Positions 3,261-27,798 are shown, counted from the first letter of the stretch. The stretch: 64,000 nucleotides of DNA from Candidatus Spongiisociaceae bacterium (GCA_965202665.1 OZ241841.1:1280001-1344000); one strand, 5' to 3'. Made by a program: numbers and translations. The notes: generated by a model not told the origin, from the letters alone.

Positions 3261-3353
3261 TTACAATCTGAGCAGTTGGATGGTGAACACAACTCCGGCT
3301 ACTCCGATGGCCGCTAGCAGGGCCAACACCATAATTACGGTGCCCGGACGCAC
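3261..3353 (-). CDS. Small single-TM membrane peptide (30 aa)
   Basis: GTG at 3353, 13 nt after the cytochrome c stop: MRPGTVIMVLALLAAIGVAGVVFTIQLLRL. Confidence 0.55.
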   Translation of the reverse strand: MRPGTVIMVLALLAAIGVAGVVFTIQLLRL

Positions 3354-3366
3354 AGCCGCAACCGAT

Positions 3367-4341
3367 TTAGGCCTCGGCGGGGGTTTCGCCTTCGGCGGCG
3401 TCCCCCTCCGGGTCGGCCAAACCGCAATCGACCACCGCCTCCGCCGGGTCCTGGCCGCCGAACACCACCCGCTCATAGAAGACCACCGCCGTCAGTTCCT
3501 CCTCGGTCAGGTTGTCGAAGGAGGGCATCTGCCCGCCCGCTCCCACCGGTTTGCCGGTGTCGCCGTAGGTGGTGCGGTTGGCCGCCTCGAAACCGGTGGT
3601 GCCCAGCCGCACCCATTCCAAATGGTCGACGCACATGGAGAAGGTGGACAGCACCGCTCCGGCCAAAGCGGGGCCGGTGCCGCCTCCGCCGCCCGCCCCA
3701 TGGCAGGATTCGCAACTGGAAGCGGCGGCGTATACGGCCTGCCCTTGGCCGACAACCGCTCGGACGTCCACTCCCCCCGCCCCGCCGGCGGCCGCGAATT
3801 CGGAGCCGTCGCAATTCTCCACCTCCCCAGTGAGCCGATCCACCGCCAACTGGCCGCCCTCCCCGCAAGTGGGCCCGCCCGCGAAACTGATCAGGTAGGT
3901 GAGGCCCACCAGCGGCACCACCGCGAACAACAAACCCAGCCAGCGGGGAACGGTCGCCGACACCCTTTCCAGAATTCCGGCGACGGGGGCGGTCACCACC
4001 GCCTCGTAGTCGCCCGCTTCGGCCAAACCCACCCGCTCCGGAGCCGGGGGCCCGGCCGCAACGGCCGCCGCAGCCGGGGCGGGGGCGGCGGGAACGGGGG
4101 CGGCGGACGGGGCCGGGGCGGACTCCGTTGCGGCGGCGGTCTCCTCGGGAGCGGGAGCGGATGGGGCTGGCGCCGACTCCGCCGGAGCGGGGCCGGCGGG
4201 GGCCGGGGCTCCGCCCGCCCACGCCGTCAAAATCTCCTCCACGGTCACCCCGGCGGCGGCCGCCCGGGCGGCGGCGGAACGTTCCACCAGGGATTCGGGG
4301 GCTTCCATAGCGGCCGCGGCGGCGGCCAGCAGTTCGCTCAT
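3367..4341 (-). CDS. Membrane-anchored monohaem cytochrome c with N-terminal helical motif and Pro/Ala linker
   Basis: CESCH haem motif, GPAL, distal GQMPSF; one TM (WLGLLFAVVPLVGLTYLISF); 4-bp overlap with the upstream gene. Confidence 0.88.
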   Translation of the reverse strand: MSELLAAAAAAMEAPESLVERSAAARAAAAGVTVEEILTAWAGGAPAPAGPAPAESAPAPSAPAPEETAAATESAPAPSAAPVPAAPAPAAAAVAAGPPAPERVGLAEAGDYEAVVTAPVAGILERVSATVPRWLGLLFAVVPLVGLTYLISFAGGPTCGEGGQLAVDRLTGEVENCDGSEFAAAGGAGGVDVRAVVGQGQAVYAAASSCESCHGAGGGGGTGPALAGAVLSTFSMCVDHLEWVRLGTTGFEAANRTTYGDTGKPVGAGGQMPSFDNLTEEELTAVVFYERVVFGGQDPAEAVVDCGLADPEGDAAEGETPAEA

Positions 4342-5144
4342 TTCAGCTCCGTCAGATAGGCGGCCAGCGTCTCCAAGTCGCGGGCCGACAGGTAAGCGTA
4401 GGAGGGATGGAGGGCGCCGGGGGCGGCCTCGCCGGGATTAACCAGGAAATTAATTACGCCGGAGGCGGCGAGCGTCCCTTCCTCGGCCCCGTAACCGGGA
4501 CGGGCCCCCACTTTGGACAGGTCGGGCCCCAAGCGGCGAATCCCGAAACTGGCGTTTTTCAGGGAATCGGAGTAGGTCTCAGTCGCCGGACCCAGCCCTA
4601 CGTCGGCCAGCACCGGACGCACCAGCTGGGTGTGGCAGTACCAACATCCTTCCCGCAGATAGACGTCCCGTCCCGCCTCCGCCGCGCCGCTCAACACCGG
4701 ATCCCCCACCAAGTGGGTGAAGTCGCCTCCGGTGCGGGCCGGGATGGCCATGGCGACGATCACCGCCGTGGCAAACAAACCCAAAACCGCCAGCCAGACG
4801 GCCAACGGGCGGAAAGGCCGTCCCTCCAAGATGGGGGTGGCCCGGCGGCGGGCGGCCGGAGCGGGAGCGGCCGCCGGAGCGGACACGGCGACGGGCGCAG
4901 GAGGGGCGGGGGCGGCCGGGGCGGGAGCGGGGGAGGTGGCGGGTTCGGCGGACGGGGGCGGGGCGGAAACTTCTTTGGCGGGGGGGGCCGGGGCGGCGGC
5001 GGGCATGGGAGCGTCACCCGCCCAGGCCGCCAACACCTCCTCCGTGGTGGAACCGGCGGCGGCCGCCCGGGCCGCGGCCGAGCGTTCCACCAGATGCTCG
5101 GGAGCTTCCAGCGCGGCGGCCGCGGCCGCCAAACGATCACTCAT
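4338..5144 (-). CDS. ccoO: cbb3-type oxidase subunit II (CcoO/FixO)-like monohaem cytochrome c
   Basis: GRDVYLREGCWYCHTQLVRP and GIRRLGPDLSKVG match CcoO hallmarks; start taken at ATG 5144 (MSDRLAAA); distal Met position reads GALHPSY. Confidence 0.85.
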   Translation of the reverse strand: MSDRLAAAAAALEAPEHLVERSAAARAAAAGSTTEEVLAAWAGDAPMPAAAPAPPAKEVSAPPPSAEPATSPAPAPAAPAPPAPVAVSAPAAAPAPAARRRATPILEGRPFRPLAVWLAVLGLFATAVIVAMAIPARTGGDFTHLVGDPVLSGAAEAGRDVYLREGCWYCHTQLVRPVLADVGLGPATETYSDSLKNASFGIRRLGPDLSKVGARPGYGAEEGTLAASGVINFLVNPGEAAPGALHPSYAYLSARDLETLAAYLTELK

Positions 5145-5476
5145 CCCCGCCTCCCCCGGCCCCGCCGCGTAGCCGGGACTCTGAGATAAACGGACGCCGC
5201 CGACCCGCCCTCGCAAAAGTTCTGCGCCGCCCGCCCCGGAAACCGCAACCGCCGAAACGTCGCTCACCCCCCGCCGCCCCGCTGTCACACCCAACACGGC
5301 CAACGCCCCCGCCGGATGCGGCACGGCACCGATGCCGCGCAACGCACGCACCGACAACCCGGCCCCCGGCGACCGGTCCCCGGCGACCGCCTCGCGCCGT
5401 CCGGAGCCCGGGAGCGCCCGCCCCGGAAACCGCAGGCGCCGAACGTTGCGCCGGGCTCGCCGCGGCCGCCGACGGA

Positions 5477-6922
5477 TCACTCATTCTCGTTTTCCCCAGC
5501 CGGCGCGTCCGGGGCGCCCACCGCCGCCAGCACTTCCACCGGGGCCGCCTCCCCCGACATATAGGTTCGCGCCACCGACCACGCCAGCAAGCCCACCCCC
5601 GCCGCCGCGGCGACGGCCGCTCCCGCCGCCAGCGTGTACAAAGGAGAGACCCCGTCCAGAATGCTCCCGAACCCGGCCCCCGCGTTGCGCAACGCCCCGG
5701 CCGCGTTGGCCCAGTTCCAAGACAGGCCGGTCACCAACCCGGCCACTAGCAACAGGCCGCAGGCAACCGCCCCGCCCCACAAAGTCAGGCGCACCCCCGC
5801 CCCCACCGTGCGGGTTGAAAACACTTCCCGGCCGGTCAGCCGGGGAAAAGCGTACAGGACAAACCCCAGGCCCAGCAACGGAACCGCCGCCAGAACCAAG
5901 CCCAGATCCAGCCCCTCCTGCCAAGCGGTCAGGCCCACCGCGGCCGACACCGACCGGAACCCGGACAGCCCGGTCAGCCCGGTGACCGCGGCGTACATCA
6001 TCACCCCCGCCATAGTGGCCAAAAGGGCGGGCCGGGCGCGGGACTCCTCCCAGCCTCCTTGCAAAGTCATCGTCAAATTGACCGCCACCGCCAGGGCGGA
6101 CAATCCCAAACCCATGGCGGCCACCGCCGCCACCGACTCCATCCAAGCGGGGGCGGGACCGCTCATGTAACGGGCCGGGGCGGCCAGCAACCCGGCCCCC
6201 GCCAAAGTCCAAAACCCGGCCCGGGCCAACCCGCCGGAAAACAGGGGGCGTCCGCTGTCGCGGGCCACCGTGAAATAGGCGGCCCCCAAAGCGGCGGCCG
6301 GGAAAGCCACCGTCAGCGCCCCGCCCGAAACCAAGCCGGCCTGCAAGAAAGTTCCGATTCCGGTCAGGCCGGGAAGGGAGCCGGTTACGTACAGGGCCGG
6401 ATACCACCACAGCGCGGCCAGCACGTAGTAGAGGGAAATGTAGGACCCGCTTTCAGTGCGACGGCGCCAGATATCGGCCGCCGACAGGGCCGCGAACAGC
6501 ATGCAGGCGGCCAGCCCCCAGTCGATCACCGGCGGGAATTCGGCGAGCTCCGTCCCGGACGGCCCCCGGAACATGACCAGAACCGACCCCGCCGCAACCA
6601 ACCCGGCGTAGACAAGGCCGTTGAGCAGGGCGGCCCGTTCCCAACGCAAAGGGGCCCCGGTCAGCCGGGGAATCAGATAGTAGGCGGCGGCCTGGGTGAG
6701 GACGCCGCCCGCCCCGTACACCAGCAGGTTGTAAGCGGCGGGGCGCAGGCGGCCGTAGGAAAGAGGAGCGGCGGCGTCGAAGAGGACGGGAACCGCCAGT
6801 TTGATCATCAGCAGGGCGGCCAAAGCGGCCCCCGCCGCTAGGAAAAGGCAGGCGATCAACATCAAACCGGCGGCCGCCCCCGCCGCGCCGATCGGATTGT
6901 CTCTGGCAGTGGCCTGCGTCAA
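5477..6922 (-). CDS. ccoN: cbb3-type oxidase subunit I (CcoN)-like polytopic membrane protein lacking all metal-ligand histidines
   Basis: LSYGRLRP, YYLIPRLTG, ELAEFP, RPLFS..L...GFW, PAW, FPRLTGREVFS; about 12 TM segments; no His in 481 aa; TTG start with AAGGAG RBS. Confidence 0.82.
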   Translation of the reverse strand: MTQATARDNPIGAAGAAAGLMLIACLFLAAGAALAALLMIKLAVPVLFDAAAPLSYGRLRPAAYNLLVYGAGGVLTQAAAYYLIPRLTGAPLRWERAALLNGLVYAGLVAAGSVLVMFRGPSGTELAEFPPVIDWGLAACMLFAALSAADIWRRRTESGSYISLYYVLAALWWYPALYVTGSLPGLTGIGTFLQAGLVSGGALTVAFPAAALGAAYFTVARDSGRPLFSGGLARAGFWTLAGAGLLAAPARYMSGPAPAWMESVAAVAAMGLGLSALAVAVNLTMTLQGGWEESRARPALLATMAGVMMYAAVTGLTGLSGFRSVSAAVGLTAWQEGLDLGLVLAAVPLLGLGFVLYAFPRLTGREVFSTRTVGAGVRLTLWGGAVACGLLLVAGLVTGLSWNWANAAGALRNAGAGFGSILDGVSPLYTLAAGAAVAAAAGVGLLAWSVARTYMSGEAAPVEVLAAVGAPDAPAGENENE

Positions 6923-7137
6923 GCCCTACTCCTTACTCCGTTCTTCGTTCCGCCCCGGGCCGCCATTTGGAGCATACCGGGCGCCGCCCCGACCGCTTCC
7001 CCTTTCCGGTGCGCCGGGCGGTTAACATATCAGGGACGGACCCGGCGTCCTCTATTCTAATGACGCCGCCCCCGGACAAACAGCCTCCGGCGGCGGACGG
7101 GAGAAACGGGATGGCCGGTTTAGCCGCGGCGGGCTTT

Positions 7138-7155
7138 TATGCTATCAATAGCATA
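7138..7155. promoter_or_regulatory. Perfect 8-2-8 palindrome TATGCTAT-CA-ATAGCATA between the divergent respiratory operons
   Basis: AT-rich inverted repeat in a GC-rich intergenic region; each strand carries a TATGCT -10-like hexamer. Confidence 0.6.
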
Positions 7156-7219
7156 GAACCGGCGGGGCGGTCCAACGCCGGCGAAGGCTGACCTAGCGGA
7201 GACGGAGACAAGCCACCAG

Positions 7220-7996
7220 ATGCTGCAACGCAAGCTTCGGCAAATAAGCGACCGGGAACGTTCCCGCCTCGGCTGGGCCGTTTTTACGCTGGGCTTGGCC
7301 GCCCTGATCGTCGGCATCTGGTTCAACCATTACTCCAATTTTCCTTCGGTGGAAACGGTGACCATCCCCACCGCCGAAGCGGCCAGCGTGCAGGCGGGCG
7401 ATGTCATCATCTACGATCGGCTACCGCATGTGGTGGACCGCACCCCGGTCATCGACCCCTCCCTGCCGCAGACCACGGTGGATCTGCGAATCGAGGTGGA
7501 CTATTTCGGATGGGTGCCCCGGGACTGCCTGATTGCGGGCGGGGACTGGTGCCTGCCCTGGTCCACCTTGGGACATTTGGTCGCCTTGGGGGGCAGCCAG
7601 CTGATGTTGCTGGGGCTGGTCCTGGCCCTGATCCTCGGACGGCGGATGACTTGGGCTTTGGCCTCCTTCGCCGCGTTTTTGGCAATGCTGGAGCTGGTGA
7701 TCTTGCTGGGCAACGTGGCCTCGGAATGGCTCAACTTGGCCCAAGGCCCGCTCAACTGGACCGAGCAGAACGACGCCTTCGTCATCTGGCCCCCCCTGGT
7801 GCTGGGCAACAACGTGGGGATCAGCTGGGGGGCCATCAAGGACTTTGTTTCCATTAACTACAATATGGGGGTTCTCACCTTTATTATTCTGTTCGCCCGG
7901 TTCGTCCAGAAACTGGGCGGCCCCGCCCCGGCGGAGGAGCCGGCCGAAGAGGCCGTTTCCCCCTACGGGCGGCCGTTGGTCAAAGGAGTCAAGTAG
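7220..7996 (+). CDS. Uncharacterised multi-pass membrane protein, first gene of the Rieske/cytochrome b operon
   Basis: About 4 hydrophobic segments, GGAG RBS, C-terminal SPYGRPLVKG; stop abuts the ferredoxin start. Confidence 0.8.
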   Translation: MLQRKLRQISDRERSRLGWAVFTLGLAALIVGIWFNHYSNFPSVETVTIPTAEAASVQAGDVIIYDRLPHVVDRTPVIDPSLPQTTVDLRIEVDYFGWVPRDCLIAGGDWCLPWSTLGHLVALGGSQLMLLGLVLALILGRRMTWALASFAAFLAMLELVILLGNVASEWLNLAQGPLNWTEQNDAFVIWPPLVLGNNVGISWGAIKDFVSINYNMGVLTFIILFARFVQKLGGPAPAEEPAEEAVSPYGRPLVKGVK

Positions 7997-8452
7997 ATGG
8001 CCAAAACCCAGGTCTGGTTCGAGACGCCCCCCTTCCGGGACGACTACCAGCTGGCCATGGTGGACGCCGAATATGTGGACAGCCAGGTGCGGCCCAAGCA
8101 GTTCCTGCACATCAACCAGGCGGAATGCATTATCTGCGAGGGGTGCGTGGACATCTGCCCCTGGAAATGCATCCATTACCTTTCGTTGGACGCCATCGAC
8201 GAGGCGCACGGGGTGGAGCACCCGACGGACGGGGCGGACAACATGGGGTTTTTCGTGGTGGACGAATATGAGTGCACCCGTTGCCAACTGTGCATCGACC
8301 GTTGCCCCACCAACGTGATTTCCATCGGCAAATTCGAAGGGTCGGTCACCGACGCCGCCCTCAACGCCGGGTTGATCGACTCGGCGCCGTGGGACATCGA
8401 CACCGGGGCCCGCGATTTCAAAAACGGATACACCTACGGGATGAGATGGTGA
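7997..8452 (+). CDS. 2x[4Fe-4S] dicluster ferredoxin
   Basis: [12 protein letters not shown] and [12 protein letters not shown]. Confidence 0.93.
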
Positions 8453-8462
8453 GGAGGTTGAG

Positions 8463-9236
8463 ATGGCGAACGGCGACCGGGTGAGCCTGCGGGAGCGGAT
8501 CGCGTCCGCCGGCGAATCGTTCCGGGCCAGTCCGTTTTGGGAGTCCATGTTCCGGCCCGGTTCCCCTTTCAAGAAAGGTTACAGCGACAGCCCCCGCAAC
8601 CGCTCCTACGTGATAATGAACAACGTGCTCTACCACCTGCATCCGGTGAAGGTGAAGCGGCACGGGGTGCGCCTCTCCTACACGTTGTGCCTGGGAGGGT
8701 TGAGTTTTTTCCTGTTCATTCTGCTCACCATCACCGGCATTTTCCTGATGTTCTATTACCGCCCCACCTCCCCCGCCGCCTACATCGACGTGGAGGCCCT
8801 GTCAACTTCGGTGGCCTTTGGGTCGCTGGTGCGCAATTTGCACCGCTGGGGGGCGCATTTGATGGTGCTGACCGTGTTTCTGCATATGTCGCGCGTGTTC
8901 TACCATGGGGCTTACAAGCCGCCCCGGGAGTTCAACTGGGTGGTGGGGGTGGTGCTGTTGCTGCTCACCTTGTTGCTTTCTTTTACCGGCTATCTGTTGC
9001 CGTGGGATCAGTTGGCGCTGTGGGCGGTGACGGTGGGCACCAACATGGCCGGGTTTACGCCCCTGTTCGGCAACCAGGTCAAATTCGCCTTGCTGGGGGG
9101 GGTGGAGGTGACCGGCAACACCTTGCTCCGCTTCTACGTGTTACATGTGTTGTTCCTGCCGTTCATCATCGTCATTTTCATGGCCGTCCACTTCTGGCGG
9201 GTGCGCAAAGACGGCGGAATTTCGGGGCCGTTATGA
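8463..9236 (+). CDS. petB: Cytochrome b6-type subunit (N-terminal half of a split cytochrome b)
   Basis: YTLCLGG (haem ci Cys), HRWGAH...[19 protein letters not shown]-x14-H, C-terminal GISGPL. Confidence 0.93.
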
Positions 9237-9344
9237 ACGGGCTGACCGCTCGTTGCGGCCGACCGGTGAGATTTGGCCGGGGGCCGGGTTTGTTACTCCT
9301 TTCTTCTCCCGGTCCCCGGCCATCCCCAAAACTGGGCGGAGGCG

Positions 9345-10256
9345 ATGGCGGAACTGCCTGAACATCTTCTTATCCGCTCAGCGGAGGCCCGGGCCAAGGC
9401 CCTGGGCCTGCCGGTGGATCAGGTGCTGGCTGAAATGAAAGGCGAAGCCCCGCCCTCAGACCCCCCGCCGGCGGAGGAAGCCCCGCCCTCGGAGGCCCCG
9501 GCGGCCGCTCCGCAGGCGGCGATGGAGAGCGCCCCGGAGGCTGAATCCGTCGCCGGGGAAACCCCGGCCGCGGAAACCCCCGCTCCCTCGGCGGCCGCCG
9601 TCGAGCCGGAGCCGGTCGCGGCGACCGCGGTAGCGGACCCTCCGCCTTCCCCTTCGGCGGAGGCGGGCAACGGGGCGTCGGCGGCTTCGGTGTCGCCCCG
9701 CCCGGTGGTTCCGCCCGCCGAGGTGCCGGAGGGGGTGCGTCCGCAACGTCTCTTGACCGTGGTGAAAGCCCGCGCCATCCAGCAGGTCAAAGCCACCCCC
9801 ACCGACAAGGTGAACACCTGGCCTCATCTGATGATCGCCGAGTTTTCGGCCCTGATGGTGATCACCGCCGGGCTGATAGTGTTGTCGGTGATACTGCAGG
9901 CCCCGTTGCTGGAGTTGGCCAACTTCAACGCCACTCCCAACCCGTCCAAAGCCCCCTGGTATTTCCTCGGTTTGCAGGAACTGCTTTCCTACTACGACCC
10001 GCAGATCGCCGGGGTGATCATTCCCGCCGTCACCGGCCTGGTCGGGTTCATGGCCATCCCCTATGTGGACCGCAACCCGTCCACCAATCCCGCCGACCGC
10101 AAATTCGCCATCATGCTGTTCACCTTGTTTCTGACCGGTTCCGCCACCCTCACCATTATCGGCACCCTGTTCCGCGGACCCGGGTTCAACTTCACCTACC
10201 CGTGGGCGGACGGCATCTGGTTCGATGACTTGAAAGACTGGGTGCATTTCGAATGA
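9345..10256 (+). CDS. petD: Cytochrome b6/b subunit IV (PetD-like) with N-terminal motif and Pro/Ala/Glu linker
   Basis: WPHL, APLLELANFNATPNPSKAPWYFLGLQELL (Qo-motif region), PYVDRNP; 3 TMs; start at ATG 9345 with GGAGG RBS. Confidence 0.88.
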   Translation: MAELPEHLLIRSAEARAKALGLPVDQVLAEMKGEAPPSDPPPAEEAPPSEAPAAAPQAAMESAPEAESVAGETPAAETPAPSAAAVEPEPVAATAVADPPPSPSAEAGNGASAASVSPRPVVPPAEVPEGVRPQRLLTVVKARAIQQVKATPTDKVNTWPHLMIAEFSALMVITAGLIVLSVILQAPLLELANFNATPNPSKAPWYFLGLQELLSYYDPQIAGVIIPAVTGLVGFMAIPYVDRNPSTNPADRKFAIMLFTLFLTGSATLTIIGTLFRGPGFNFTYPWADGIWFDDLKDWVHFE

Positions 10257-11176
10257 CCTCCGTCCAGCTTCTGGTTTTGGCGGTGGCCGCGGTGGCGGTG
10301 GCGGGGGTGCTGGGGGCTTTCGTAATCGCCTACCGGCGCACCACCGGCGCCTCCCCCTCTGAACGCGCCCGCCGCAAAGTGCGGGTGTCGCGGGAAACGC
10401 GCCGGGCGGACCGTTCCCGCTTGGAAGAACCGGTGGCCGTATCGGTCCCGGCCGAGGAGGAACCGGAGGCCGCCCCGGCTGAGGCTGAGTCTGAGGAGGA
10501 CGAGGAGGAGGCTGAAGCCGAGGCCGGGGAGCTGGAACCGGTTGCGGCCGTGGCGGCGGTGGAAGTGGCGGCGGTGGAAGAGTTGTCCCCGGAGGAGGCG
10601 GGCGTGAACCGGCGCCAGTTTTTCACCCGGGCGCTGGGCATCACCTTCGGGGCTTTCCTGGGTTTGAACGGCATCTCCTATCTGGCTTTTCTGTGGCCGC
10701 GCCTGTCGGGGGGGTTCGGTTCCGACATCGACGTGGGCGACATCACCGAACTGCGGGCCGAGGTTTTCCTGTCGGACGGCTCCATCCTGCCCAAGTTCGT
10801 CCCCGAAGCCCGGGCCTACATAGTGCCCTTCGCCGAAACCGATGTTTCCCGCTCCCAGTTCGAAGGTCTGCCGGTGGTAGTGGGGGGCTTGACCGCCCTT
10901 TTTCAGCGGTGCGTGCACCTGGGTTGCCGGGTGCCGTGGTGCGAAACCTCCCAGGGCTTTGAGTGCCCCTGCCACGGTTCCAAATACAACTTCGCGGGCG
11001 AATACGAAGCGGGTCCCGCCCCCCGCAACCTGGACCGGTTCGCTTTGGAAAATCAGGAGGGGCGGCTGATCGTCAAAACGGGGACCATTCTGCAGACTTC
11101 GCGGGCCATCGCCAAGACCGTCCGCTATCCGCAGGGGCCGTCCTGCATCGCCTTGGACGCGGGCACGGAGGCGTGA
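10253..11176 (+). CDS. petC: Rieske [2Fe-2S] protein
   Basis: CVHLGC and CPCHGSKY boxes, GPAPRNL; internal Tat motif NRRQFF followed by a TM; extra N-terminal TM. Confidence 0.94.
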   Translation: MTSVQLLVLAVAAVAVAGVLGAFVIAYRRTTGASPSERARRKVRVSRETRRADRSRLEEPVAVSVPAEEEPEAAPAEAESEEDEEEAEAEAGELEPVAAVAAVEVAAVEELSPEEAGVNRRQFFTRALGITFGAFLGLNGISYLAFLWPRLSGGFGSDIDVGDITELRAEVFLSDGSILPKFVPEARAYIVPFAETDVSRSQFEGLPVVVGGLTALFQRCVHLGCRVPWCETSQGFECPCHGSKYNFAGEYEAGPAPRNLDRFALENQEGRLIVKTGTILQTSRAIAKTVRYPQGPSCIALDAGTEA

Positions 11177-11179
11177 CCG

Positions 11180-12619
11180 GTGGCCACGTTGGTCGTCACC
11201 ATCGTCGCTTTAGGGGCCATCGGTTGGTTCGCCTACCTGGTCGGGTCGGGGTCGCGGCGGGACCGGCGGGATCCGGTTCCGTCCAACCTGTCGGCGGCCG
11301 CCACCGACGACGAACTGGAAACCACCCGCTTGGACCGCACCCTGATGGGGGCGGTGGTGGCGGCCGGGTTCCTCACGTTGGCCATGCCCATCTACTACCT
11401 GAGCGAGTTCGACCGCCAGGAGGGTTTCGTGGAAGAGTTCGCCGAAGCCTCTTTGGATCGGGGGCATGAGGTGTGGGAGGAGTTCGGGTGCGGGGACTGC
11501 CATGGGGCAACCGGGGGGGGCGGGGTGGCCGCCTACCTGGAGGAGCGCTCCAAAGTGAACGTGCCCGGCTGGGCGGCCCCCGCTTTGGACGACATTTTCT
11601 TCCGTTACGACCGGGACGAAGTACGGTTCTGGATCACTTACGGCCGGGCCAACTCTCCCATGCCCGCCTGGGGTTTGGAAGGGGGCGGGGCCCTCAACTC
11701 CCAGCAGATCGACGACCTGCTCAACTACATCGGGGCTTTCCAGATTCCGCAACAAGACGCCCTGCTCAGAATCGAGGGGACGGTGAACGGGGCCCGCAAT
11801 CGGCTGACCGGGGCCTCTGAGGCGGTGGGGCAGCAGATCGCCGACCAGCAGGCCTTGGTGGAGGAAATCACCAACTCCGGGGAAACTTCGGTGGCGGTGA
11901 CCGACATCGCCGACCGGGCCCGGGACGTCTTGGACGGGGCCGGGGACGGGATCGACACCGACGGGGACGGCCTGTCGGACAGGGCCGAATCCGATCTGAC
12001 CGCCATCGGGCGGGAAGCTCTGGAAACCGGTTTCCTGGCGGTGGATACCTCCTTCGATCCCCGCAACGTTGAAACCCTGATCGGGTCTTCGGATTCCCGT
12101 TCCGCCGCCCGCATGGTGAGCGACTTGGAGTCGCGGGCCACCTCTTTGACCATTACCTCCCAGAACCGGGAAGTCCTGCTGGAACAGGCCCGGTTTGGGC
12201 TGTCTTTCTTGGAGGAAGCGGCCGGGGCGGCCCGCTGGGAAGTGGATTTCCAAGAGGTGGCGGACGGATCCTTCGGCGGGGATCGGGAAAGGGCGGAGCG
12301 GGCCGCGGCCCTGTTCAACGGATACTGCGCCCGATGCCACACCGCCGGTTATTCGGCCGGGCCGGCTTTCCAACAGGTGCAGGCGTCCGGGGCGCTGGGG
12401 CCGTCGTTGCGGGCGGGGCGCTCCCGAACGCAGTTCCTGGCAGCGGAGGACATGGCCGAGTTTTTGCAGAAAGGTTCCGTTTCGGGTGAAGGTTACGGGG
12501 TGAACGGGGTGGGTTCGGGGCGGATGCCCGGCTTCGGACAGGTGCTGTCGGGGGAGGACATCGACCTGATCGTGGGATATCTGCGAGGGCCGACTTTGGA
12601 CGGGCGGGAGGATAACTGA
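11180..12619 (+). CDS. Membrane-anchored dihaem cytochrome c
   Basis: CGDCH with SPMPAWG and CARCH with GRMPGFG; two N-terminal TMs; central helical region containing DTDGDGLSD. Confidence 0.9.
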   Translation: MATLVVTIVALGAIGWFAYLVGSGSRRDRRDPVPSNLSAAATDDELETTRLDRTLMGAVVAAGFLTLAMPIYYLSEFDRQEGFVEEFAEASLDRGHEVWEEFGCGDCHGATGGGGVAAYLEERSKVNVPGWAAPALDDIFFRYDRDEVRFWITYGRANSPMPAWGLEGGGALNSQQIDDLLNYIGAFQIPQQDALLRIEGTVNGARNRLTGASEAVGQQIADQQALVEEITNSGETSVAVTDIADRARDVLDGAGDGIDTDGDGLSDRAESDLTAIGREALETGFLAVDTSFDPRNVETLIGSSDSRSAARMVSDLESRATSLTITSQNREVLLEQARFGLSFLEEAAGAARWEVDFQEVADGSFGGDRERAERAAALFNGYCARCHTAGYSAGPAFQQVQASGALGPSLRAGRSRTQFLAAEDMAEFLQKGSVSGEGYGVNGVGSGRMPGFGQVLSGEDIDLIVGYLRGPTLDGREDN

Positions 12620-12969
12620 TGCGGGAGTTGTTCCGGACGATTCTTTCCCAGAACCTGCTGTTCACCGGGATCGTGTTGACGGCGGCGGCGGTGCTGGTGT
12701 TTTTCGGAACCATATACCTGTTGAACCACACCAACCTGGGCCGCCGGTTGGCGGTGCTGATGCTGGGAGCGGGAATTTTCGGATGGACCACCATCAACTC
12801 CATCCTGTTCGTGCTCTACGCGCCGCGGGGCCCGCGACCGGTGGATTTCGAGGGGTTGAACGCCTTTGAGATCCGGATCATCCCCGGGGCGTTCGCGGCC
12901 GGCTCCGCCATTTTGTTCGCCATGTTCCTAGTGGCCCTGCACCGCTACGAACGGGACCAAGAACGTTAA
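12619..12969 (+). CDS. Small 3-TM membrane protein
   Basis: Three hydrophobic segments; TGATG overlap with the dihaem cytochrome c gene; GGAGG RBS. Confidence 0.8.
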   Translation: MRELFRTILSQNLLFTGIVLTAAAVLVFFGTIYLLNHTNLGRRLAVLMLGAGIFGWTTINSILFVLYAPRGPRPVDFEGLNAFEIRIIPGAFAAGSAILFAMFLVALHRYERDQER

Positions 12970-13324: not shown

Positions 13325-13818
13325 GGCGGACCGATTACTTCCTCATCGCCTCCCCCCGGGAGGACGCCCGGCGGGCGGCGGAACAGGTTCCAGCCCCTTA
13401 TAACGACCTCCAATCTCTGCAAGAGGCTTTGTACGAACTGTGCCTGAACGTGCAACAGTGGGCGGAGGCCCCGGGGTTCATCGCCGTGGAGGAAGATGAC
13501 CTGCATCGCATTATCACCGTCCGCGACGAGGGGGCGGGGATTCCGACCACTATCAGAAAGGCCTTCCCCGCCAACCAGGCGGCGGTGGCCAAAGCCCTAA
13601 GCCCGGGCGAAACCTCGTCCGGCGGGCAACGGCGGAGAAAGGGGCTGGCCGGCGCCATCGGCTTGTCCGCCCGCGGGTTTATCGTCTACCTGGAGACGGA
13701 GGATGTAGCGGCCTGGGCGGAGGGGGGAAACACCATTTTCGCTTACAAAGGCGGTCGGGCGGTGACCGGAACCCGCATACAGATCATCTATCCGACGGAC
13801 CGCCCTCCGTCCGCTTGA
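13321..13818 (+). CDS. Stand-alone GHKL/HATPase_c-like domain protein
   Basis: ALYELCLNV (N box), VRDEGAGIP (G1), KGL (degenerate G2), GTRI (G3). Confidence 0.65.
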   Translation: MRRTDYFLIASPREDARRAAEQVPAPYNDLQSLQEALYELCLNVQQWAEAPGFIAVEEDDLHRIITVRDEGAGIPTTIRKAFPANQAAVAKALSPGETSSGGQRRRKGLAGAIGLSARGFIVYLETEDVAAWAEGGNTIFAYKGGRAVTGTRIQIIYPTDRPPSA

Positions 13819-13859
13819 GCCCGGCGGAGGGGGTTGGAAACGGGCGTAAACTGGGGCGG

Positions 13860-14495
13860 GTGGAGAATTGCCGAGCGTCCAACAACCACCTGCCCGCGGC
13901 GACGGTGGAGCGGTTGCCCCGCTACCTGCGCTTGCTGGAACAGAAACCGGAGGCGCAGGCCACCATTTCCTCCACCGAGCTGGCCGCCGGGGTGGGGATG
14001 AACGCGGCGGGGGTGCGCAAAGACCTGTCCCGCCTCGGCTCCTACGGAAAACCGGGCACCGGCTACTACAAGGAGGAACTGACCGCCGTCATCCGCCGCC
14101 GGCTGGGGCTGACCGAAGACCGGCCGGTGGCGGTGATGGGAGCGGGCAACCTGGGGTCGGCCCTGGCCGGCTACGGCGGGTTCGCCCGGCGCGGTTTTCG
14201 CATCGTCGGCCTGTACGACGCCGCTCCCGGCAAGATCGGAACCGTAATCGGGGGGATAACGGTGCGTCCGGTGGAAGACCTGGCGGTCGACGCGGCCCGC
14301 GTCCCCATCGCGGTGGGGATTATCGCCACTCCGGCCGCAGTAGCCCAGGAAGTGGCCGATTTGCTGGCGGCGGCCGGCGTGTCGTCCATTCTCAACTTCG
14401 CCCCGGCCGCCCTGCAAGTTCCGAGCGGGATACATCTGCGCCAAGTGGATCTGGCCACCGAGTTGCAGATTCTCAGCTACCACCTAGCCGGGTAG
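13860..14495 (+). CDS. rex: Redox-sensing transcriptional repressor Rex
   Basis: LPAATVERLPRYLR, ISSTELA, VRKDLS.LGSYG, GAGNLGSAL, ILNFAP; probable leaderless GTG start at 13860. Confidence 0.96.
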   Translation: MENCRASNNHLPAATVERLPRYLRLLEQKPEAQATISSTELAAGVGMNAAGVRKDLSRLGSYGKPGTGYYKEELTAVIRRRLGLTEDRPVAVMGAGNLGSALAGYGGFARRGFRIVGLYDAAPGKIGTVIGGITVRPVEDLAVDAARVPIAVGIIATPAAVAQEVADLLAAAGVSSILNFAPAALQVPSGIHLRQVDLATELQILSYHLAG

Positions 14496-14597: not shown

Positions 14598-15032
14598 GTG
14601 ACCCTTTCCGACTACCTCCCCATAGCTGTGATGCTCGTCCTAGCGGCGGCCTTTGCGGGCGTGTCGCTGGTCGTCTCCTATCTTCTTTCCTACCGTCGTC
14701 CCACCCCCGAAAAACTGGAGCCTTACGAATGCGGGATCGTCACCGAGGCCGAACCGGTGCACCGCTTCCCGGTCAAGTTTTACCTGGTGGCCATCCTGTT
14801 CGTTATCTTCGATGTGGAAATCATTTTCCTGTTCGTATGGGCCTCCCAGTTTGAAACTTTGGGCTGGTTCGGAGCGGCGGCGGTGGGCCTGTTCACCCTG
14901 ATGATCGTGGAAACCCTGGGCTACGTGTGGAAACGGGGGGCCTTGGACTGGAACGAATCCCGCCGCGCCCGCTACCGCCCCGCCGACCCCGCCCCGGCGC
15001 CCGCCGCCGAACCGGCCGGGAAAGCCGCCTGA
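14598..15032 (+). CDS. nuoA: NADH-quinone oxidoreductase subunit A
   Basis: [33 protein letters not shown]. Confidence 0.97.
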
Positions 15033-15502
15033 TGGCCCGCCTGTCCTCCCCGCCCAACCTGCTCACCACCACTTTGGGCAAGGCCATGCGCTGGGCCCAA
15101 ACCCAATCAATGTGGCCCGCCACCTTCGGTTTGGCCTGTTGCGCCATCGAGATGATGGCCACCGGCACCGCCCACAACGACCTGGCCCGGTTCGGGATGG
15201 AAGTGTTCCGGGCCTCCCCCCGTCAAGCCGACCTGATGATCGTGGCCGGGCGGGTGTCGCAGAAGATGGCCCCGGTGTTGCGCCAGGTGTACGACCAGAT
15301 GGCCGACCCCAAATGGGTGATTTCCATGGGGGCGTGCGCCTCCACCGGCGGAATGTTCAACAACTACGCCCTGGTGCAGGGAGTGGACCAGGTGGTGCCG
15401 GTGGATATGTACGTGCCCGGGTGCCCCCCCGGACCGCAGTCGCTGATGCACGGCATCCTCACCTTGCAGGACCGGGTGATGAGCGGAGAGGCCGCCCGTT
15501 GA
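15032..15502 (+). CDS. nuoB: NADH-quinone oxidoreductase subunit B
   Basis: [34 protein letters not shown]; ATG overlaps the nuoA stop. Confidence 0.98.
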
Positions 15503-16020
15503 CCACCGGCGCCCCCGACATCCCCGCCCCGGAAGCGCCCCCCGCCGGGGACGAACTCTTGGACGGCCTGCTGCAACGGGCGGAGGGGGCGGAGGCGGCC
15601 GTCTCGCTGGGGGATCAGACCATCCGGGTGGAACCCGGCCGCCTGCTCGCCCTGGCGGAGGCCGCCCATGAAGCCGGGTTTGAAATGTGCGTGGACATTA
15701 CCGCCGCGGACTATCTAGGGAGTCGCCCGGAACGGTTCGAGCTGGTGGTCAACCTGCTGTCGATTTCCCATAACCGGAGGTTGCGCATCCTGGCCGCCCT
15801 CCCGGAAAAAGACCCGACCGCCCCTTCGCTGACCTCCGTCTATCCGGGGGCCAACTTTTTGGAGCGGGAAGCGTACGACATGTTCGGCATCCGGTTCGAC
15901 GGCCATCCCGATTTGACCCGCATCCTCATGCCCGACGACTGGGAGGGCCATCCGTTGCGCAAAGACTTCGCGACGGGTGAAGTGCCGGTGCAGTTCAAAG
16001 AAACCCCGCAGGTGACATGA
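15499..16020 (+). CDS. nuoC: NADH-quinone oxidoreductase subunit C
   Basis: [36 protein letters not shown]; TTG start overlapping the nuoB stop. Confidence 0.97.
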
Positions 16021-17369
16021 CCGAGACCCGCACCTCCCAAACCGACGACCTGTGGCTGACCGGGACCGAAGTTCCGGAATGGATGGTGGCCGGCACCGAC
16101 GAAGGGGCCCAGGAGATGGAGCGGTCCGAAAGCGGGGGCCGGGCGGCGGAGCAGATGGGCTCGCGGGTGGCGGACGACTGGGTGATAGCCGACGAAACGG
16201 CCGACGACGAAAGAATGATCGTCAACATGGGCCCGCAGCACCCGTCCACTCACGGGGTGCTCCGCCTCAACTTGGAACTGGAAGGGGAAATCGTCCGGCG
16301 CGTCAAGCCGGTGATCGGCTACCTGCACACCGGGATGGAAAAAACGGCCGAAACCCTCACCTTCCTGCAAGGCGGGACCAACGTGACCCGCATGGACTAC
16401 CTGGCCCCGTTGCACAACGAACTCTGCTATTCGCTGGCGGTGGAAAAACTGCTGGGGGTGGAAATTCCGCCCCGGGCGCAGGCCATCCGCATTCTTATGA
16501 CCGAGTTGAACCGCATCTCCTCCCATCTGGTGGCCACCGCCACCAACGGAATGGACATCGGGGCCCTGTCCATGATGATGTACGGGTTCCGGGAGCGGGA
16601 GTTGATCCTGGCATTCTTCGAAAAAACCACCGGGCTGCGGATGAACCACAACTACATACGGCCCGGCGGGGTGGCGGCCGACCTGCCCGACGGCTGGCGG
16701 GAGGACGTGGGGGAAATCTTGGAGCGGATCCCGGCCGCCATGGCCGACTACGAGGATCTGCTGAAAGAGAACTCCATTTGGAAGGGACGCACGCAGGGGG
16801 TGGGGATCATCACCGCCCAAGAATGCCTGGCCTACGGGGTGACCGGCCCCATCCTCAAAGCCAGCGGGGTGGACTGGGACTTGCGCAAAACCCAGCCCTA
16901 TTGCGGAATAGAAGAGTACCAGTTCGACACGGTAACCGGACAGGCGGGGGACGTCTACGACCGCTACCGGGTGCGCATTGGGGAAATGCGCCAGTCGTTG
17001 CGCATCGTCGCCCAAGCCGCGGAGCGGATGCCCGCCGGGGATTACAAGACGGAAGACCGGAAAGTGTCGCCGCCGCCCCGCAAGCGGTTGGACGAATCCA
17101 TGGAGGCCCTCATCCACCATTTCAAAATCTACACCGAAGGGTTCAAAGTTCCGGAGGGGGAAACCTATGCGGCGGTGGAGTCGCCCCGGGGGGAGTTGGG
17201 ATGCTATCTGGTTTCGGACGGGGGCGGGCGGCCGTTGCGCATGCACACCCGGGGCCCCTCTTTCTCCAACCTGCAGGCCCTGCCGGTGATGATGGCCGGC
17301 TCCCCGGTGGCCGATGTAATCGCCGGCATCGCCTCTTTGGATCCGGTGATGGGGGACGTGGACCGGTGA
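16017..17369 (+). CDS. nuoD: NADH-quinone oxidoreductase subunit D
   Basis: NMGPQHPSTHGVLRL, GYLHTGMEK, RMDY, ESPRGE, DPVMGDVDR. Confidence 0.98.
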   Translation: MTETRTSQTDDLWLTGTEVPEWMVAGTDEGAQEMERSESGGRAAEQMGSRVADDWVIADETADDERMIVNMGPQHPSTHGVLRLNLELEGEIVRRVKPVIGYLHTGMEKTAETLTFLQGGTNVTRMDYLAPLHNELCYSLAVEKLLGVEIPPRAQAIRILMTELNRISSHLVATATNGMDIGALSMMMYGFRERELILAFFEKTTGLRMNHNYIRPGGVAADLPDGWREDVGEILERIPAAMADYEDLLKENSIWKGRTQGVGIITAQECLAYGVTGPILKASGVDWDLRKTQPYCGIEEYQFDTVTGQAGDVYDRYRVRIGEMRQSLRIVAQAAERMPAGDYKTEDRKVSPPPRKRLDESMEALIHHFKIYTEGFKVPEGETYAAVESPRGELGCYLVSDGGGRPLRMHTRGPSFSNLQALPVMMAGSPVADVIAGIASLDPVMGDVDR

Positions 17370-18010
17370 CCGCCGCCCCTCCCTACGCCTGGTCCGAGCG
17401 GGCCGAAAGCTTGGCGGAGGCGGTGATGGCCCGCTATCCGCAACCCCGTTCGGCGGTCATGCCCCTGCTGTACATAGCCATGCGGGAAGACGGCCACCTG
17501 ACCGAGCCGGGAATGCGCAAAGTGGCGGAAATGACCGGGATCACCCCCGCCCAGGTGGCGGCGGCGGCCGGTTTCTACACGATGTACAAGCGGACCCCGG
17601 TGGGGAAATACCTGGTGTCGGTGTGCACCTCCATTTCTTGCTGGTTGCTGGGAGCGGACGACGTGTTGCGGGCGGTGGAGGCGACGGCCGGGGTTCCGTC
17701 CGGGGAAACCGATGAGGAGGGCCTGGTCTCCCCCGAGCACGTGGAATGCATCGGGGCTTGCGGAGGGGCCCCGGCGGTGCAGGTCAACTACGAGTTCGTG
17801 GAAGGGGTGACCCCGCAGGCGGCCCGGTCGCTGGTGGAATGGCTGCAAGCGGAACGGCCCGATTCGGTCAACGGGGACGACATGCAGGTGCGGTTCGGCG
17901 GTCCGGCCGGGTTTGACTGGGCCATCCCGGACCCGGCCCGGGCGGGGGGCCCGGCGCCCGCTTTCGGGCCGTTGGGAACCCTGGCCGGCGCCCCGGAGGA
18001 GGGACAATGA
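17366..18010 (+). CDS. nuoE: NADH-quinone oxidoreductase subunit E
   Basis: RSAVMPLL, FYTMY, CTSISC, ECIGACGGAP; GTG start at 17366. Confidence 0.96.
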   Translation: MTAAPPYAWSERAESLAEAVMARYPQPRSAVMPLLYIAMREDGHLTEPGMRKVAEMTGITPAQVAAAAGFYTMYKRTPVGKYLVSVCTSISCWLLGADDVLRAVEATAGVPSGETDEEGLVSPEHVECIGACGGAPAVQVNYEFVEGVTPQAARSLVEWLQAERPDSVNGDDMQVRFGGPAGFDWAIPDPARAGGPAPAFGPLGTLAGAPEEGQ

Positions 18011-19341
18011 GCGAACCGCTGATCCTCACCTCCCGCATGAACGAACATCCCCGCACCAGCCACACCCGGGCCGTCTACGAGGAGACGGGCGGCTACCGGG
18101 CGTTGCGGACGGTGCTGGGCGGAAACGGGGACGGGCCGGGGATGACGCCAGAGGCGGTGACCGAAGAAGTAAAAACCTCCATGTTGCGGGGGCGGGGCGG
18201 GGCCGGGTTTCCGGCCGGGATGAAATGGAGTTTTCTGGCCCCCGCCCGGCCCTCCTATCTGGTGGTGAACGCCGACGAGTCGGAGCCGGGCACCTTCAAG
18301 GACCGCCAGTTGATGGAGCGGGACCCCCACCAGCTGGTGGAAGGGGTGATCATCGCCTCCTACGCCAACGAGGCGCATCACGCCTTCATCTACATCCGGG
18401 GCGAATACCCCAAGTCGGCCCGCCGGGTGCAGGCGGCGACGGACGAAGCCTACGCCGCCGGGTATCTGGGAGGGAACATCCTGGGGAGCGGATTCGACTT
18501 GGAGGTAACCGTTCATTTGGGGGCGGGGGCTTACATCTGCGGGGAGGAAACCGCCCTGCTCAACAGCTTGGAGGGGAAACGGGGCGAGCCCCGCCTGAAA
18601 CCCCCCTATTTTCCAGCCGCCAAAGGCCTTTACATGCAACCCACCATCGTCAACAACGTGGAAACCCTGTCCAACCTGCCCTGGATCATCAACAACGGAG
18701 GGGAGGCCTACGCGGCCATCGGCCCCCCCGACTCCCCCGGGCGGCGGATGTGCTCCGTTTCCGGGCATGTCAACCGGCCGGGCAACTACGAAATGACGGA
18801 AGGGATGACTTGGCGCCATCTCATTTATGAAACGGCGGGCGGCATCCGGAACGGGAACCGCCTGAAGGCGTGGGTGCCGGGCGGGGCCTCCGCCCCCTGG
18901 TTCGTGCCCGACCGTCATCTGGACACCGAAGTGACCAAGGCGGTGATCGACGCCCAAGGTTCCATGGTCGGGTCGGGGGCGGTGATCGTGATGGACCACA
19001 CCACCGACATGGTGGCGGCCGCGGAACGGCTGGTGCGGTTTTTCGCCCACGAGTCGTGCGGGCAGTGCACCCCCTGCCGGGAAGGGACCGTCTGGCTGGA
19101 CATGATCCTGCGTCGCATAATGGACGGGCAGGGGCGGCCGGCGGACGCCGACCTGCTGTACGACGTGTCGGACAACATCTCCCCCGGGGTGGCCTGGCCG
19201 CCCAAGATGACCACCATCTGCCCGTTGGGGCCGTCGGCGGTGTCGCCGGTGGATTCCCTCCTCAAATATTTCCGGGACGAAGTGGACGAATACCTGCGGG
19301 CGGCCAACCTGGTCCCGGTGGAAATCGGAGCGGCGGTATGA
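18007..19341 (+). CDS. nuoF: NADH-quinone oxidoreductase subunit F
   Basis: GRGGAGFPAG, NADESEPGTFKDR, GAGAYICGEETAL, ESCGQCTPCREG. Confidence 0.98.
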   Translation: MSEPLILTSRMNEHPRTSHTRAVYEETGGYRALRTVLGGNGDGPGMTPEAVTEEVKTSMLRGRGGAGFPAGMKWSFLAPARPSYLVVNADESEPGTFKDRQLMERDPHQLVEGVIIASYANEAHHAFIYIRGEYPKSARRVQAATDEAYAAGYLGGNILGSGFDLEVTVHLGAGAYICGEETALLNSLEGKRGEPRLKPPYFPAAKGLYMQPTIVNNVETLSNLPWIINNGGEAYAAIGPPDSPGRRMCSVSGHVNRPGNYEMTEGMTWRHLIYETAGGIRNGNRLKAWVPGGASAPWFVPDRHLDTEVTKAVIDAQGSMVGSGAVIVMDHTTDMVAAAERLVRFFAHESCGQCTPCREGTVWLDMILRRIMDGQGRPADADLLYDVSDNISPGVAWPPKMTTICPLGPSAVSPVDSLLKYFRDEVDEYLRAANLVPVEIGAAV

Positions 19342-22831: not shown

Positions 22832-22832
22832 A

Positions 22833-23474
22833 ATGGATCCGATAAGAGCGTTCCTGAAAGGCATGGCCGTCACTTGGCGGCAGTTTGTCTCCACTATGGT
22901 CGGCAAAGGGCTGGTCACTACCAAATACCCGCAGGAGATGCGGGAAAAACCGCAACGTTTCCACGGCCGCCACGTCCTGAACCGTTACGAAGACGGCATG
23001 GAAAAATGCATCGGGTGCGAGCTGTGCGCCGGGGCTTGTCCGGCCCGATGCATCTACGTGCGGGGGGCCGACAATCCCGAAGAGGAGCCCGTCAGCCCCG
23101 GGGAACGTTACGGGTTCATCTACGAAATCAACATGTTGCGCTGCATTTTCTGCGGCTTGTGCGTAGAGGCCTGCCCCACCGAGGCCATCACCCACACCCA
23201 GCTGTTCGAAATGTCCTCCTCCAACCGGGCGGACGCCATCTACACCAAAACGGAGCTGCTGGTGGAGCAAGACGGCTCCCCCGCCCATATGTTCGACTCC
23301 GACCCTTACGCCGACCTGGGGGAACTGAACAAGGCCGACGGGTGGCTGCGGGCCACCTCCCCGCAGGGGCGGGCCGCCTACGAAGGGGTGGTCGGCTGGA
23401 CCGGCTCGGCCGGGACCGGAGTGCGCCCCCCGGAACGGGGGCAGTCGGAGGAGGAGACGGGGCCCGATGGTTGA
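22833..23474 (+). CDS. nuoI: NADH-quinone oxidoreductase subunit I
   Basis: [12 protein letters not shown] and [18 protein letters not shown]. Confidence 0.98.

Positions 23475-26265: not shown

Positions 26266-26266
<1 letters not shown>
24362..26266 (+). CDS. nuoL: NADH-quinone oxidoreductase subunit L
   Basis: [59 protein letters not shown]. Confidence 0.98.

Positions 26267-27797
<1,531 letters not shown>

Positions 27798-27798
<1 letters not shown>

Follow-up and report, generated by a model that had tools for sequence, protein, structure and literature searches.

We analysed a 64,000-nucleotide stretch of the genome of Candidatus Spongiisociaceae bacterium (GCA_965202665.1 OZ241841.1:1280001-1344000; hereafter the window, with positions counted from its first letter), in which two divergent gene arms (3261..12969) encode, on the left, a homologue of the cbb3 oxidase subunit CcoN that carries no cofactor ligand and, on the right, a b6-type Rieske/cytochrome b complex with its own ferredoxin. 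The system is real, selected and widespread, and probably works like an aerobic complex III-IV chain. On balance we consider it probable that the right arm, the sole Rieske/cytochrome b complex of its host, runs forwards as aerobic complex III, that the ligand-free CcoN is a scaffold for CcoO and a monohaem cytochrome c toward a caa3 oxidase, and that the ferredoxin is a cytoplasmic port. Sequence and computation establish the cofactor motifs, the loss of ligands from a fold that is preserved, purifying selection, synteny, joint loss with the A-family oxidase, and a domain shared between the arms. In the proposed mechanism the right-arm complex would oxidise menaquinol (MKH2), for which complex I is the likely source, and electrons would pass through the Rieske protein and the dihaem cytochrome c to the monohaem cytochrome c (and perhaps CcoO), caa3 and O2. 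CcoO and the monohaem cytochrome c would sit on the CcoN membrane scaffold, and tethered domains of PetD, CcoO, cytochrome c and a caa3-linked membrane protein may hold the parts in physical association.

All eleven genes of the two arms are present with intact open reading frames (ORFs). Pfam and NCBIfam profiles assign COX1/CcoN, FixO/CcoO and cytochrome c on the minus strand, and Fer4, cytochrome b N-terminal, cytochrome b C-terminal, Rieske and cytochrome c, together with two unassigned membrane proteins, on the plus strand. Contigs from two studies, one 4.6-kb contig per run, span 3445-8041 in one piece; the indels listed within coding regions are all in frame and no frameshift is listed inside genes, so the layout of the locus is not an assembly artefact. 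The order of the source is probably UBA5794, and the genus of the sampled genomes of 0.9-1.1 Mb is probably Ca. Actinomarina. For comparison, we fetched 40 of 55 matching relatives, preferring longer contigs and leaving out unpublished genomes, which with the window gives 41 sequences; a class sample of 151 genomes and a phylum sample beyond it extended the survey. A few tallies, the KOR (2-oxoglutarate:ferredoxin oxidoreductase) count below among them, take in unpublished genomes, on which nothing else depends. PetB orthologues were called at E <= 1e-120 and strong matches to the ligand-free CcoN at E <= 1e-30 (two weak matches are not counted). The closest named relatives of PetB are from Ca. 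Spongiisociaceae bacterium (94%) and Acidimicrobiia bacterium (93%).

A selected CcoN homologue without cofactor ligands

The CcoN-like protein (5477..6922, minus strand) has no histidine among its 481 residues. It aligns over its full length with solved cbb3 CcoN (E about 1e-14 to 1e-15), every ligand being replaced, and its AlphaFold2 model (predicted local distance difference test score, pLDDT, 92.3) has the 12 helices of cbb3 subunit I; the top seven Foldseek matches are all CcoN chains (TM-score 0.85-0.86, with 0.86 to 3mk7, 8smr and 9g83). Five of the six positions that hold the His ligands of haem b, haem b3 and CuB are His in 0/41 sequences and one in 2/41, and the cross-linked active-site Tyr, which is Gly244 here, is Tyr in 0/41. 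For His207, His257 and His258 we follow the P. stutzeri numbering in the cited part of PMC3578206. If no haem or copper can bind, O2 reduction and proton pumping by this protein are excluded chemically. The other residues are given their conventional names.

The ratio of nonsynonymous to synonymous substitution rates (dN/dS; Nei-Gojobori, eight pairs, GC-rich DNA) is 0.09-0.36 for the ligand-free CcoN and 0.09-0.45 over the left arm, which rules out neutral decay of that arm. Conservation falls on Gly, Pro and Trp and on charges near the ends of helices; not one of the 17 conserved charged columns is more than four residues inside a helix. The initial annotation had proposed that a dead oxidase subunit acts as a scaffold or ion conduit. 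The first half of that proposal is supported, and the second is not, because the conserved charges sit at helix ends and none mid-helix. The K-channel residues Ser240 and His243 are replaced in 37/41 and 39/41 sequences, respectively. Judged by sequence, this is a cofactor-less, selected, scaffold-like protein and not a cbb3 oxidase. It is thus a pseudoenzyme under selection in the haem-copper oxidase family, which is otherwise defined by its cofactors. Since databases label such genes "cbb3-type cytochrome c oxidase subunit I", high-affinity microaerobic respiration inferred from them is probably wrong.

The ligand-free CcoN is fused to CcoO in 12 of the 40 order-level loci. In the window CcoO is a separate homologue (4338..5144, minus strand; PF02433 over cut-off) with one haem c (CWYCH) and His as its distal ligand; over the 41 sequences this ligand is His in 21, Met in 14, Gln in 3 and a gap in 3. 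A 113-residue N-terminal extension of CcoO was considered and discarded, as it is not conserved. The third gene (3367..4341, minus strand; PF13442/PF00034; dN/dS 0.16-0.45) encodes a membrane-anchored monohaem cytochrome c, predicted to be His/Met-ligated (CESCH, QMPSF), in which an N-terminal three-helix domain is followed by a Pro/Ala linker. Left-arm content of this kind, a His-free CcoN with CcoO and a monohaem cytochrome c, was already described in the initial annotation. The micro-peptide also described there is present in another form: the 71-residue ORF is not conserved, and a 30-residue version with a single transmembrane segment and a likely GTG start at 3353 (3261..3353, minus strand) is the most probable product, an RPGT-plus-hydrophobic ORF after cytochrome c being found in 15 of the 40 loci, mostly of the same family.

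Ligand-poor CcoN proteins also occur in other families of Actinomycetota, where they group with the order-level proteins (FastTree support 0.999), with the exception of two CcoN sequences from AT-rich one-megabase genomes that fall outside the group on long branches. Intact cbb3-type CcoN was found in five other genomes of the phylum and groups elsewhere in the tree. Three loci of one further family (L264-L266, family f74) encode CcoN-like proteins with altered ligands (Trp and Tyr at two His columns) and have ccoO upstream.

The b6-type complex, its oxidase and the tether domain

The right arm (plus strand) opens with a membrane protein without an assigned family (7220..7996; no Pfam match over cut-off; present in 20/20 class loci), followed by a dicluster ferredoxin (7997..8452), PetB (8463..9236), PetD/subunit IV (9345..10256), a Rieske protein (10253..11176), a membrane-anchored dihaem cytochrome c (11180..12619) and a small membrane protein, again without an assigned family (12619..12969; conserved in 20/20 class loci). 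Cytochrome b is therefore split into separate ORFs. The four-helix, b6-type PetB (PF00033) carries His127/141/228/243 and the haem ci motif CLGG at residue 76, with 66 motif matches to CxGG in 80 loci scanned, some of them truncated, and PetD (PF00032) carries the Qo motif APWY, as do 72/72 pattern matches. The Rieske protein (PF00355) has the boxes CVHLGC and CPCHGSKYN, an RRQF Tat-like motif, an extra N-terminal transmembrane helix and the S-Y (high-potential) signature, found in 72/73 loci (S-F in one); the dihaem cytochrome c has two CxxCH motifs, both haems being predicted His/Met.

By its motifs and by the NCBIfam ExtP hidden Markov model (HMM; PetB scores 305.9 bits against a cut-off of 290), the right arm is assigned to the APWY clade of b6-type complexes, with haem ci attachment predicted. 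The view that it is not the actinobacterial QcrCAB holds: cytochrome b is split, the Qo motif is APWY, QcrB_actin scores 108 bits against a cut-off of 500, and QcrA/QcrB HMM scores are weak and far below cut-off. There is no flavoprotein or NAD(P) oxidoreductase subunit among the seven genes, whose order is kept in 20/20 loci from other orders.

The extra helix of the Rieske protein and a long acidic linker (10253-10610) precede its RRQF motif, an N-terminal build that suggests, by analogy, mixed Sec/Tat insertion. Between the two haems of the dihaem cytochrome c lies a helical insert of about 180 residues (11750-12300) with a TSP3-like DTDGDGLSD motif; it is found in the order and in one-megabase genomes and is much shorter elsewhere. 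One genome (G050) has a second cluster (L267:741-4312), in which the genes of a ba3-like oxidase come before one for a cytochrome b with a fused dicluster ferredoxin domain.

The arms are divergent neighbours in 39 of the 40 order-level loci, and the remaining locus ends at a contig edge. PetB orthologues are present in 138 of the 151 class genomes, including 12/12 genomes of 0.9-1.1 Mb, and strong matches to the ligand-free CcoN in 53 of 151 (39/45 in the order and 14/106 elsewhere, including 12/12 one-megabase genomes). Every one of these 53 also has a PetB orthologue, and the reverse does not hold, which makes the dependence one-way. The right arm is also found in cultured Acidimicrobiales, Aquihabitans among them (L196), and seems to be what Acidimicrobiia and several other Actinomycetota families use as their standard complex III.

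The source genome (G000) has two COX1 genes, the ligand-free CcoN and a canonical A-family caa3 subunit. The caa3 operon (1372667-1376946 on contig C1, 85 kb from the cluster) has intact HPEVY, WAHH, HFH, CuA and CxxCH motifs. PetB is the sole cytochrome b of this genome, and no bd oxidase was found in it. An oxidase fed by cytochrome c depends on a quinol:cytochrome c reductase, and the right arm is the only candidate for that role found there (alternative complex III, ACIII, was not searched in this genome). Across the class, an A-family oxidase matches in 144 of 151 genomes and in 136 of the 138 with a PetB orthologue; in a 137th (G050), ctaD is cut by a contig end. All five sampled members of the order without a PetB orthologue (G034, G045, G146, G153 and G164) have neither the ligand-free CcoN nor an A-family oxidase, and a PF00115 search in three of them found no haem-copper oxidase at all. 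The complex is kept beside caa3 in one-megabase genomes.

These results go against the claim of the initial annotation that electrons pass among the c haems, quinone and ferredoxin (in reverse or cyclic flow, or to an external partner) and not to O2. An assembly of that kind would suit the high-potential Rieske signature and one genome with the cluster in which no oxidase was found (G161), and reverse running has been proposed for Geobacter APWY complexes, in the passages of PMC4122944 cited here, from gene context only. We nevertheless hold it to be very unlikely: the right arm is the sole complex III-type enzyme found for a cytochrome c-dependent caa3 in the source genome, the complex is lost together with the oxidase and retained beside caa3 in one-megabase genomes, and among the CxxCH-bearing ORFs no multihaem conduit stood out, with at most two motifs per ORF.

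A further link between the arms and the oxidase is the N-terminal motif that the initial annotation had noticed on three subunits. It corresponds to a domain of about 45 residues in three helices (AlphaFold2 pLDDT 86.5; helices 2-12, 16-30 and 34-42 in CcoO), carried at the locus by CcoO (5010..5144, minus strand), cytochrome c (4207..4341, minus strand) and PetD (9345-9452), where the copy is shortened and without helix 1; some genomes have tandem copies. A Pro/Ala linker and then a transmembrane helix follow it, and the domain is thus predicted to be cytoplasmic. Where the ligand-free CcoN is missing from a locus, PetD gives only a weak match to the domain, with the middle helix alone retained. 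The domain also sits on a fourth carrier, which has about six membrane helices, is encoded beside the caa3 operon (G000:C1:1367150-1368313, plus strand; homologues L242-L245) and is a candidate oxidase-side anchor. Of five other genomes searched, four have exactly four carriers. The distance from the fourth carrier to ctaD is 2-7 kb in four of five genomes (G000, G052, G042 and G064), and in G064 the carrier directly follows ctaG on the same strand. Neither the domain nor the fourth carrier has a useful match in Pfam, PDB sequences, VIA or the ESM Atlas, which does not show a new fold; 49 domain members gave no E3_binding match, and the best VIA Z was 5.5, to a designed toroid. In three loci (L074 and L075, from genomes of 1.0-1.1 Mb, and L056), CcoO and cytochrome c of the same genome begin with domains that agree at every one of about 48 residues, a pattern that suggests gene conversion.

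A ligand-free CcoN in another genome (G070; L082:2593-4737, minus strand) has a fused C-terminal cupredoxin domain and lies directly upstream of ctaC-ctaD; P0035 and P0083 resemble this fusion.

Ferredoxin, competing readings and flanking sequence

The ferredoxin of the right arm has two CxxCxxC motifs for a predicted 2x[4Fe-4S] content and neither a signal nor a transmembrane segment, as expected of a dedicated cytoplasmic protein; its eight Cys are conserved across class and phylum, and selection on it (dN/dS 0.03-0.11) is nearly as strong as on PetB. The proposed linkage to a b6-type cytochrome b is borne out by its constancy as a companion: it matches in 78 of 80 PetB-selected loci (of the other two, one is truncated and one has no match), and directly precedes petB in 20/20 loci from other classes, which were selected through the ferredoxin match.

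The source genome has menB and korAB, the latter for 2-oxoglutarate:ferredoxin oxidoreductase (KOR), and no Rnf. No Rnf or Nqr subunit exceeded the cut-off in five genomes, and the futalosine pathway was not found in the same number. KOR is present in 77/83 ferredoxin-bearing genomes versus 57/118 others, in a tally of related genomes that includes unpublished ones. A Kgd-type E1 exceeds the cut-off in the source genome and three others and not in a one-megabase genome. One genome of 1.0 Mb (G064) has KOR and no Kgd-type E1, menB or futalosine gene over cut-off. In the sections of PMC12008989 cited here, KOR is reported from most UBA5794, 2-oxoglutarate dehydrogenase is stated to be absent, and complexes I-IV are listed without the features described here; the Kgd-type E1 of these four genomes differs from the reported absence. 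That ferredoxin could deliver electrons to haem cn/ci of b6f-type complexes is a suggestion made in the cited part of PMC5600118. Reduced ferredoxin, for example from KOR, would most likely feed electrons in at the haem ci/Qi site through the bound ferredoxin, and entry is our preferred direction over exit.

Exit would make the same forward chain to caa3 and O2 a menaquinol bifurcation, with one electron passing from haem bL through bH and ci to a [4Fe-4S] cluster, so yielding reduced ferredoxin, driven by the fall of the other to O2. The potentials give this some appeal, in that an S-Y Rieske protein (72/73 loci) is predicted to lie above +260 mV in the cited part of PMC4122944 and is paired here with menaquinone (menB) at about -80 mV; by our arithmetic on the symmetry argument made for anammox in the cited part of PMC12954380, haem bL could be near -430 mV, low enough for 2x[4Fe-4S], and genomes without KOR retain the ferredoxin. 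Even so, we regard exit as unlikely, as the NAD(P) oxidoreductase subunit of the anammox complexes is missing from this operon, heterotrophs with KOR and without Rnf need ferredoxin to be oxidised rather than made, and the potentials are predicted from the motif only.

Several observations weigh against a forward chain that is scaffolded by the ligand-free CcoN and fed by ferredoxin. In the class, 85 of 138 genomes with a PetB orthologue have no strong match to the ligand-free CcoN, and many such carriers have only a divergent cytochrome c gene in place of the left arm. The left arm is therefore optional and the scaffold dispensable elsewhere, and the co-occurrence of the arms, which the initial annotation had asked to have surveyed, holds at order level and is one-way in the class. 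A single assembly of all eleven products is plausible, yet it would not be obligatory, since the right arm stands without CcoN in most other Acidimicrobiia. A His in place of the usual distal Met of CcoO would be expected to lower its potential, a poor fit to a forward relay. One order-level locus (L068) has no ferredoxin gene, five Acidimicrobiia genomes without KOR retain the ferredoxin, and the source genome itself also has the Kgd-type 2-oxoglutarate dehydrogenase. As for the link to the oxidase, one genome (G057) has two motif carriers only, and in another (G001) the fourth carrier is about 95 kb from ctaD; G161 (95% complete, 4 contigs) has the complex and the ligand-free CcoN with no A-family match; the five co-loss genomes fall in two families and so are not independent events; and the published proposal of reverse operation for APWY complexes, cited above, points the other way.

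Some of these facts would also suit a left arm that is a separate membrane module (an assembly factor, redox sensor, ion or lipid conduit, or independent cytochrome anchor), co-regulated with the complex and outside its electron path and assembly. Such a module would account for the separate divergent transcript, for dispensability in most of the class, for the variable distal ligand of CcoO and for the divergence of the ligand-free CcoN to 22-35% identity within the order. We think it quite unlikely: the left arm shares the tether domain with PetD, the ligand-free CcoN never occurs without the complex in the class sample (53/53), and in another lineage a similar module has come to lie, by convergence, between complex III and an A-family oxidase (see below). 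A conduit in particular is disfavoured by the lack of a conserved mid-helix charge and by the replacement of the two K-channel residues in most sequences.

The coupling within the operons, described as tight, is not so throughout: gaps of 332 bp separate ccoN from ccoO and of 108 bp petB from petD. The former spacer (5145-5476) is GC-rich, contains a repeated short segment and varies between populations at 5319-5386; a comparable spacer occurs in the same genus and is absent from most relatives. The divergent intergenic region contains a perfect 8-2-8 palindrome of putative function (7138..7155) that occurs once in the genome. An inverted repeat with equally long arms arose in 37 of 500 shuffles of the region, and the palindrome was seen only within the same genus among 39 loci scored (in approximate intergenic windows), so that the sequence described as a palindromic control region is real and its role as a conserved shared operator is rejected. 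No site resembling the Rex-box consensus was found in the cluster's intergenic regions, whose windows are approximate.

Downstream of the right arm are rex (13815..14495, plus strand) and the complete complex I genes nuoA-N (14598..29252, plus strand), a likely quinol source. The rex and nuo genes follow as first noted, with the amendment that two small unrelated ORFs (13007-13818; 105 residues, and 165 residues with a weak HATPase_c match) precede rex, neither of them seen in the 40 relative loci. Of the 31 relative loci with a rex gene, 26 have it in convergent orientation. The dnaK-grpE genes (347-3099) lie directly downstream of the left arm, an adjacency seen in the same genus only.

A convergent cassette and comparison with known systems

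In a profile search of 1.84 billion representatives, 135 of the best 150 matches cover all ligand columns; of these, 81 lack every His ligand and 28 retain the full six. One ligand-poor group falls inside the intact CcoN sequences, its relatives being named Verrucomicrobiota and labelled cbb3 subunit I in the databases. Among 58 metagenome loci of this Verrucomicrobiota-type group, 57 had a scorable CcoN: no sequence retains a His in the His257, His345 or His347 column, or a Tyr in the Tyr251 column, and many keep His60 and His207. Their CcoN-CcoO-cytochrome c cassette has ACIII genes upstream in 25/25 loci with room for them and an A-family ctaD downstream in 32/32. As with the cupredoxin fusion of G070 ahead of ctaC-ctaD, the module is thereby placed between a complex III and an A-family oxidase. 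Its separate position in trees points to a degeneration independent of that of the ligand-free CcoN described here, so that such a pseudoenzyme would have recurred, and no tether domain was found in nine loci scanned. Two loci (L273 and L319, about 1300-19000) have the operon actA-F, ligand-poor ccoN, ccoO, cytochrome c, cupredoxin and A-family ctaD/E/C; the CoxII-like protein of L273 does not match the CuA pattern used.

We can only tentatively, and with real doubt that all its parts will hold, extend these results to a wider picture, in which a b6-type complex III with its own ferredoxin is joined to caa3 by a recycled dead cbb3 adaptor and a new three-helix tether, the adaptor having arisen twice (with Rieske/b6 complexes in Actinomycetota and with ACIII in Verrucomicrobiota), and exchange with ferredoxin takes place at haem ci, possibly as O2-driven bifurcation, in abundant marine, sponge and soil aerobes. 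A ferredoxin permanently encoded beside a haem ci cytochrome b allows the long-debated route from ferredoxin to haem ci of b6f-type complexes to be tested in a non-photosynthetic setting. New here are the recycled dead oxidase, the dedicated ferredoxin and the tether domain; the APWY b6-type clade is already named in print. In the open-licence literature (subscription papers and supplements being outside the scope, and the supplements of PMC4122944 and PMC12008989 possibly listing neighbouring genes), neither a ligand-free CcoN nor this cluster was found described; the cited part of PMC11214002 describes new haem-copper families with metal sites kept, and those of PMC6431628 and PMC4013037 describe no such ligand-free protein.

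The tether domain of the locus can be likened to known domains by analogy only. It resembles the peripheral subunit-binding domain of 2-oxoacid dehydrogenase E2 (small, helical, with a long Ala/Pro linker and sometimes tandem), and differs in having no Pfam, PDB-sequence or clear fold match. The system as a whole likely does the same job as QcrCAB-aa3 (Corynebacterium 7qho, Mycobacterium 6adq), in which electrons pass from menaquinol through a dihaem cytochrome c to an A-family oxidase and O2 without a soluble carrier; here, cytochrome b is split, a haem ci motif is present, the Qo motif is APWY rather than PDWY, a ferredoxin and the ligand-free CcoN are added, and caa3 is encoded 85 kb away. 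With the cbb3 oxidase CcoNOP (P. stutzeri 3mk7) and bc1-cbb3 supercomplexes (8smr, 6xkw and 9g83), it shares the 12-helix CcoN fold, CcoO, the order N-O-cytochrome c and a complex III nearby, whereas the ligands and active-site Tyr are gone, a monohaem cytochrome c replaces the dihaem CcoP, and O2 reduction is left to caa3.

The likeness to the Verrucomicrobiota cassette lies in a degenerate CcoN-CcoO-cytochrome c between complex III and an A-family oxidase. The cited part of PMC8498564 notes that ACIII adjoins C-type oxidase genes in verrucomicrobia and treats these as cbb3 oxidases, their activity unquestioned; the likeness is drawn from the 57 metagenome loci scored, a set apart from the methanotroph genes of that review. 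The Verrucomicrobiota cassette is partnered by ACIII and often keeps His at two positions, whereas the partner here is a Rieske/b6 complex. The anammox complexes Kuste4569-4574 and Kustd1480-1485, for which bifurcation to a low-potential acceptor is proposed in the cited part of PMC12954380, likewise join a cytoplasmic redox subunit to a Rieske protein of high potential; their further parts are an NAD(P) oxidoreductase and multihaem c domains, in contrast to the small ferredoxin and aerobic chain found here. Closest is the APWY clade, including Geobacter ExtP/ExtQ, which shares the split cytochrome b with CxGG, the APWY motif and the S-Y Rieske protein. Kao and Hunte (2014; PMC4122944), in the passages cited here, place Ilumatobacter (I. 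coccineus) among actinobacteria with a split cytochrome b, and state that no APWY member has been characterised and that haem ci attachment is unverified for the clade, which remains uncharacterised although it is apparently the standard complex III of Acidimicrobiia. Relative to the clade as those passages present it, the locus adds a dedicated ferredoxin, a dead CcoN module and a tether domain, none of which they mention, and where they favour reverse operation, the complex described here is the sole complex III of aerobes.

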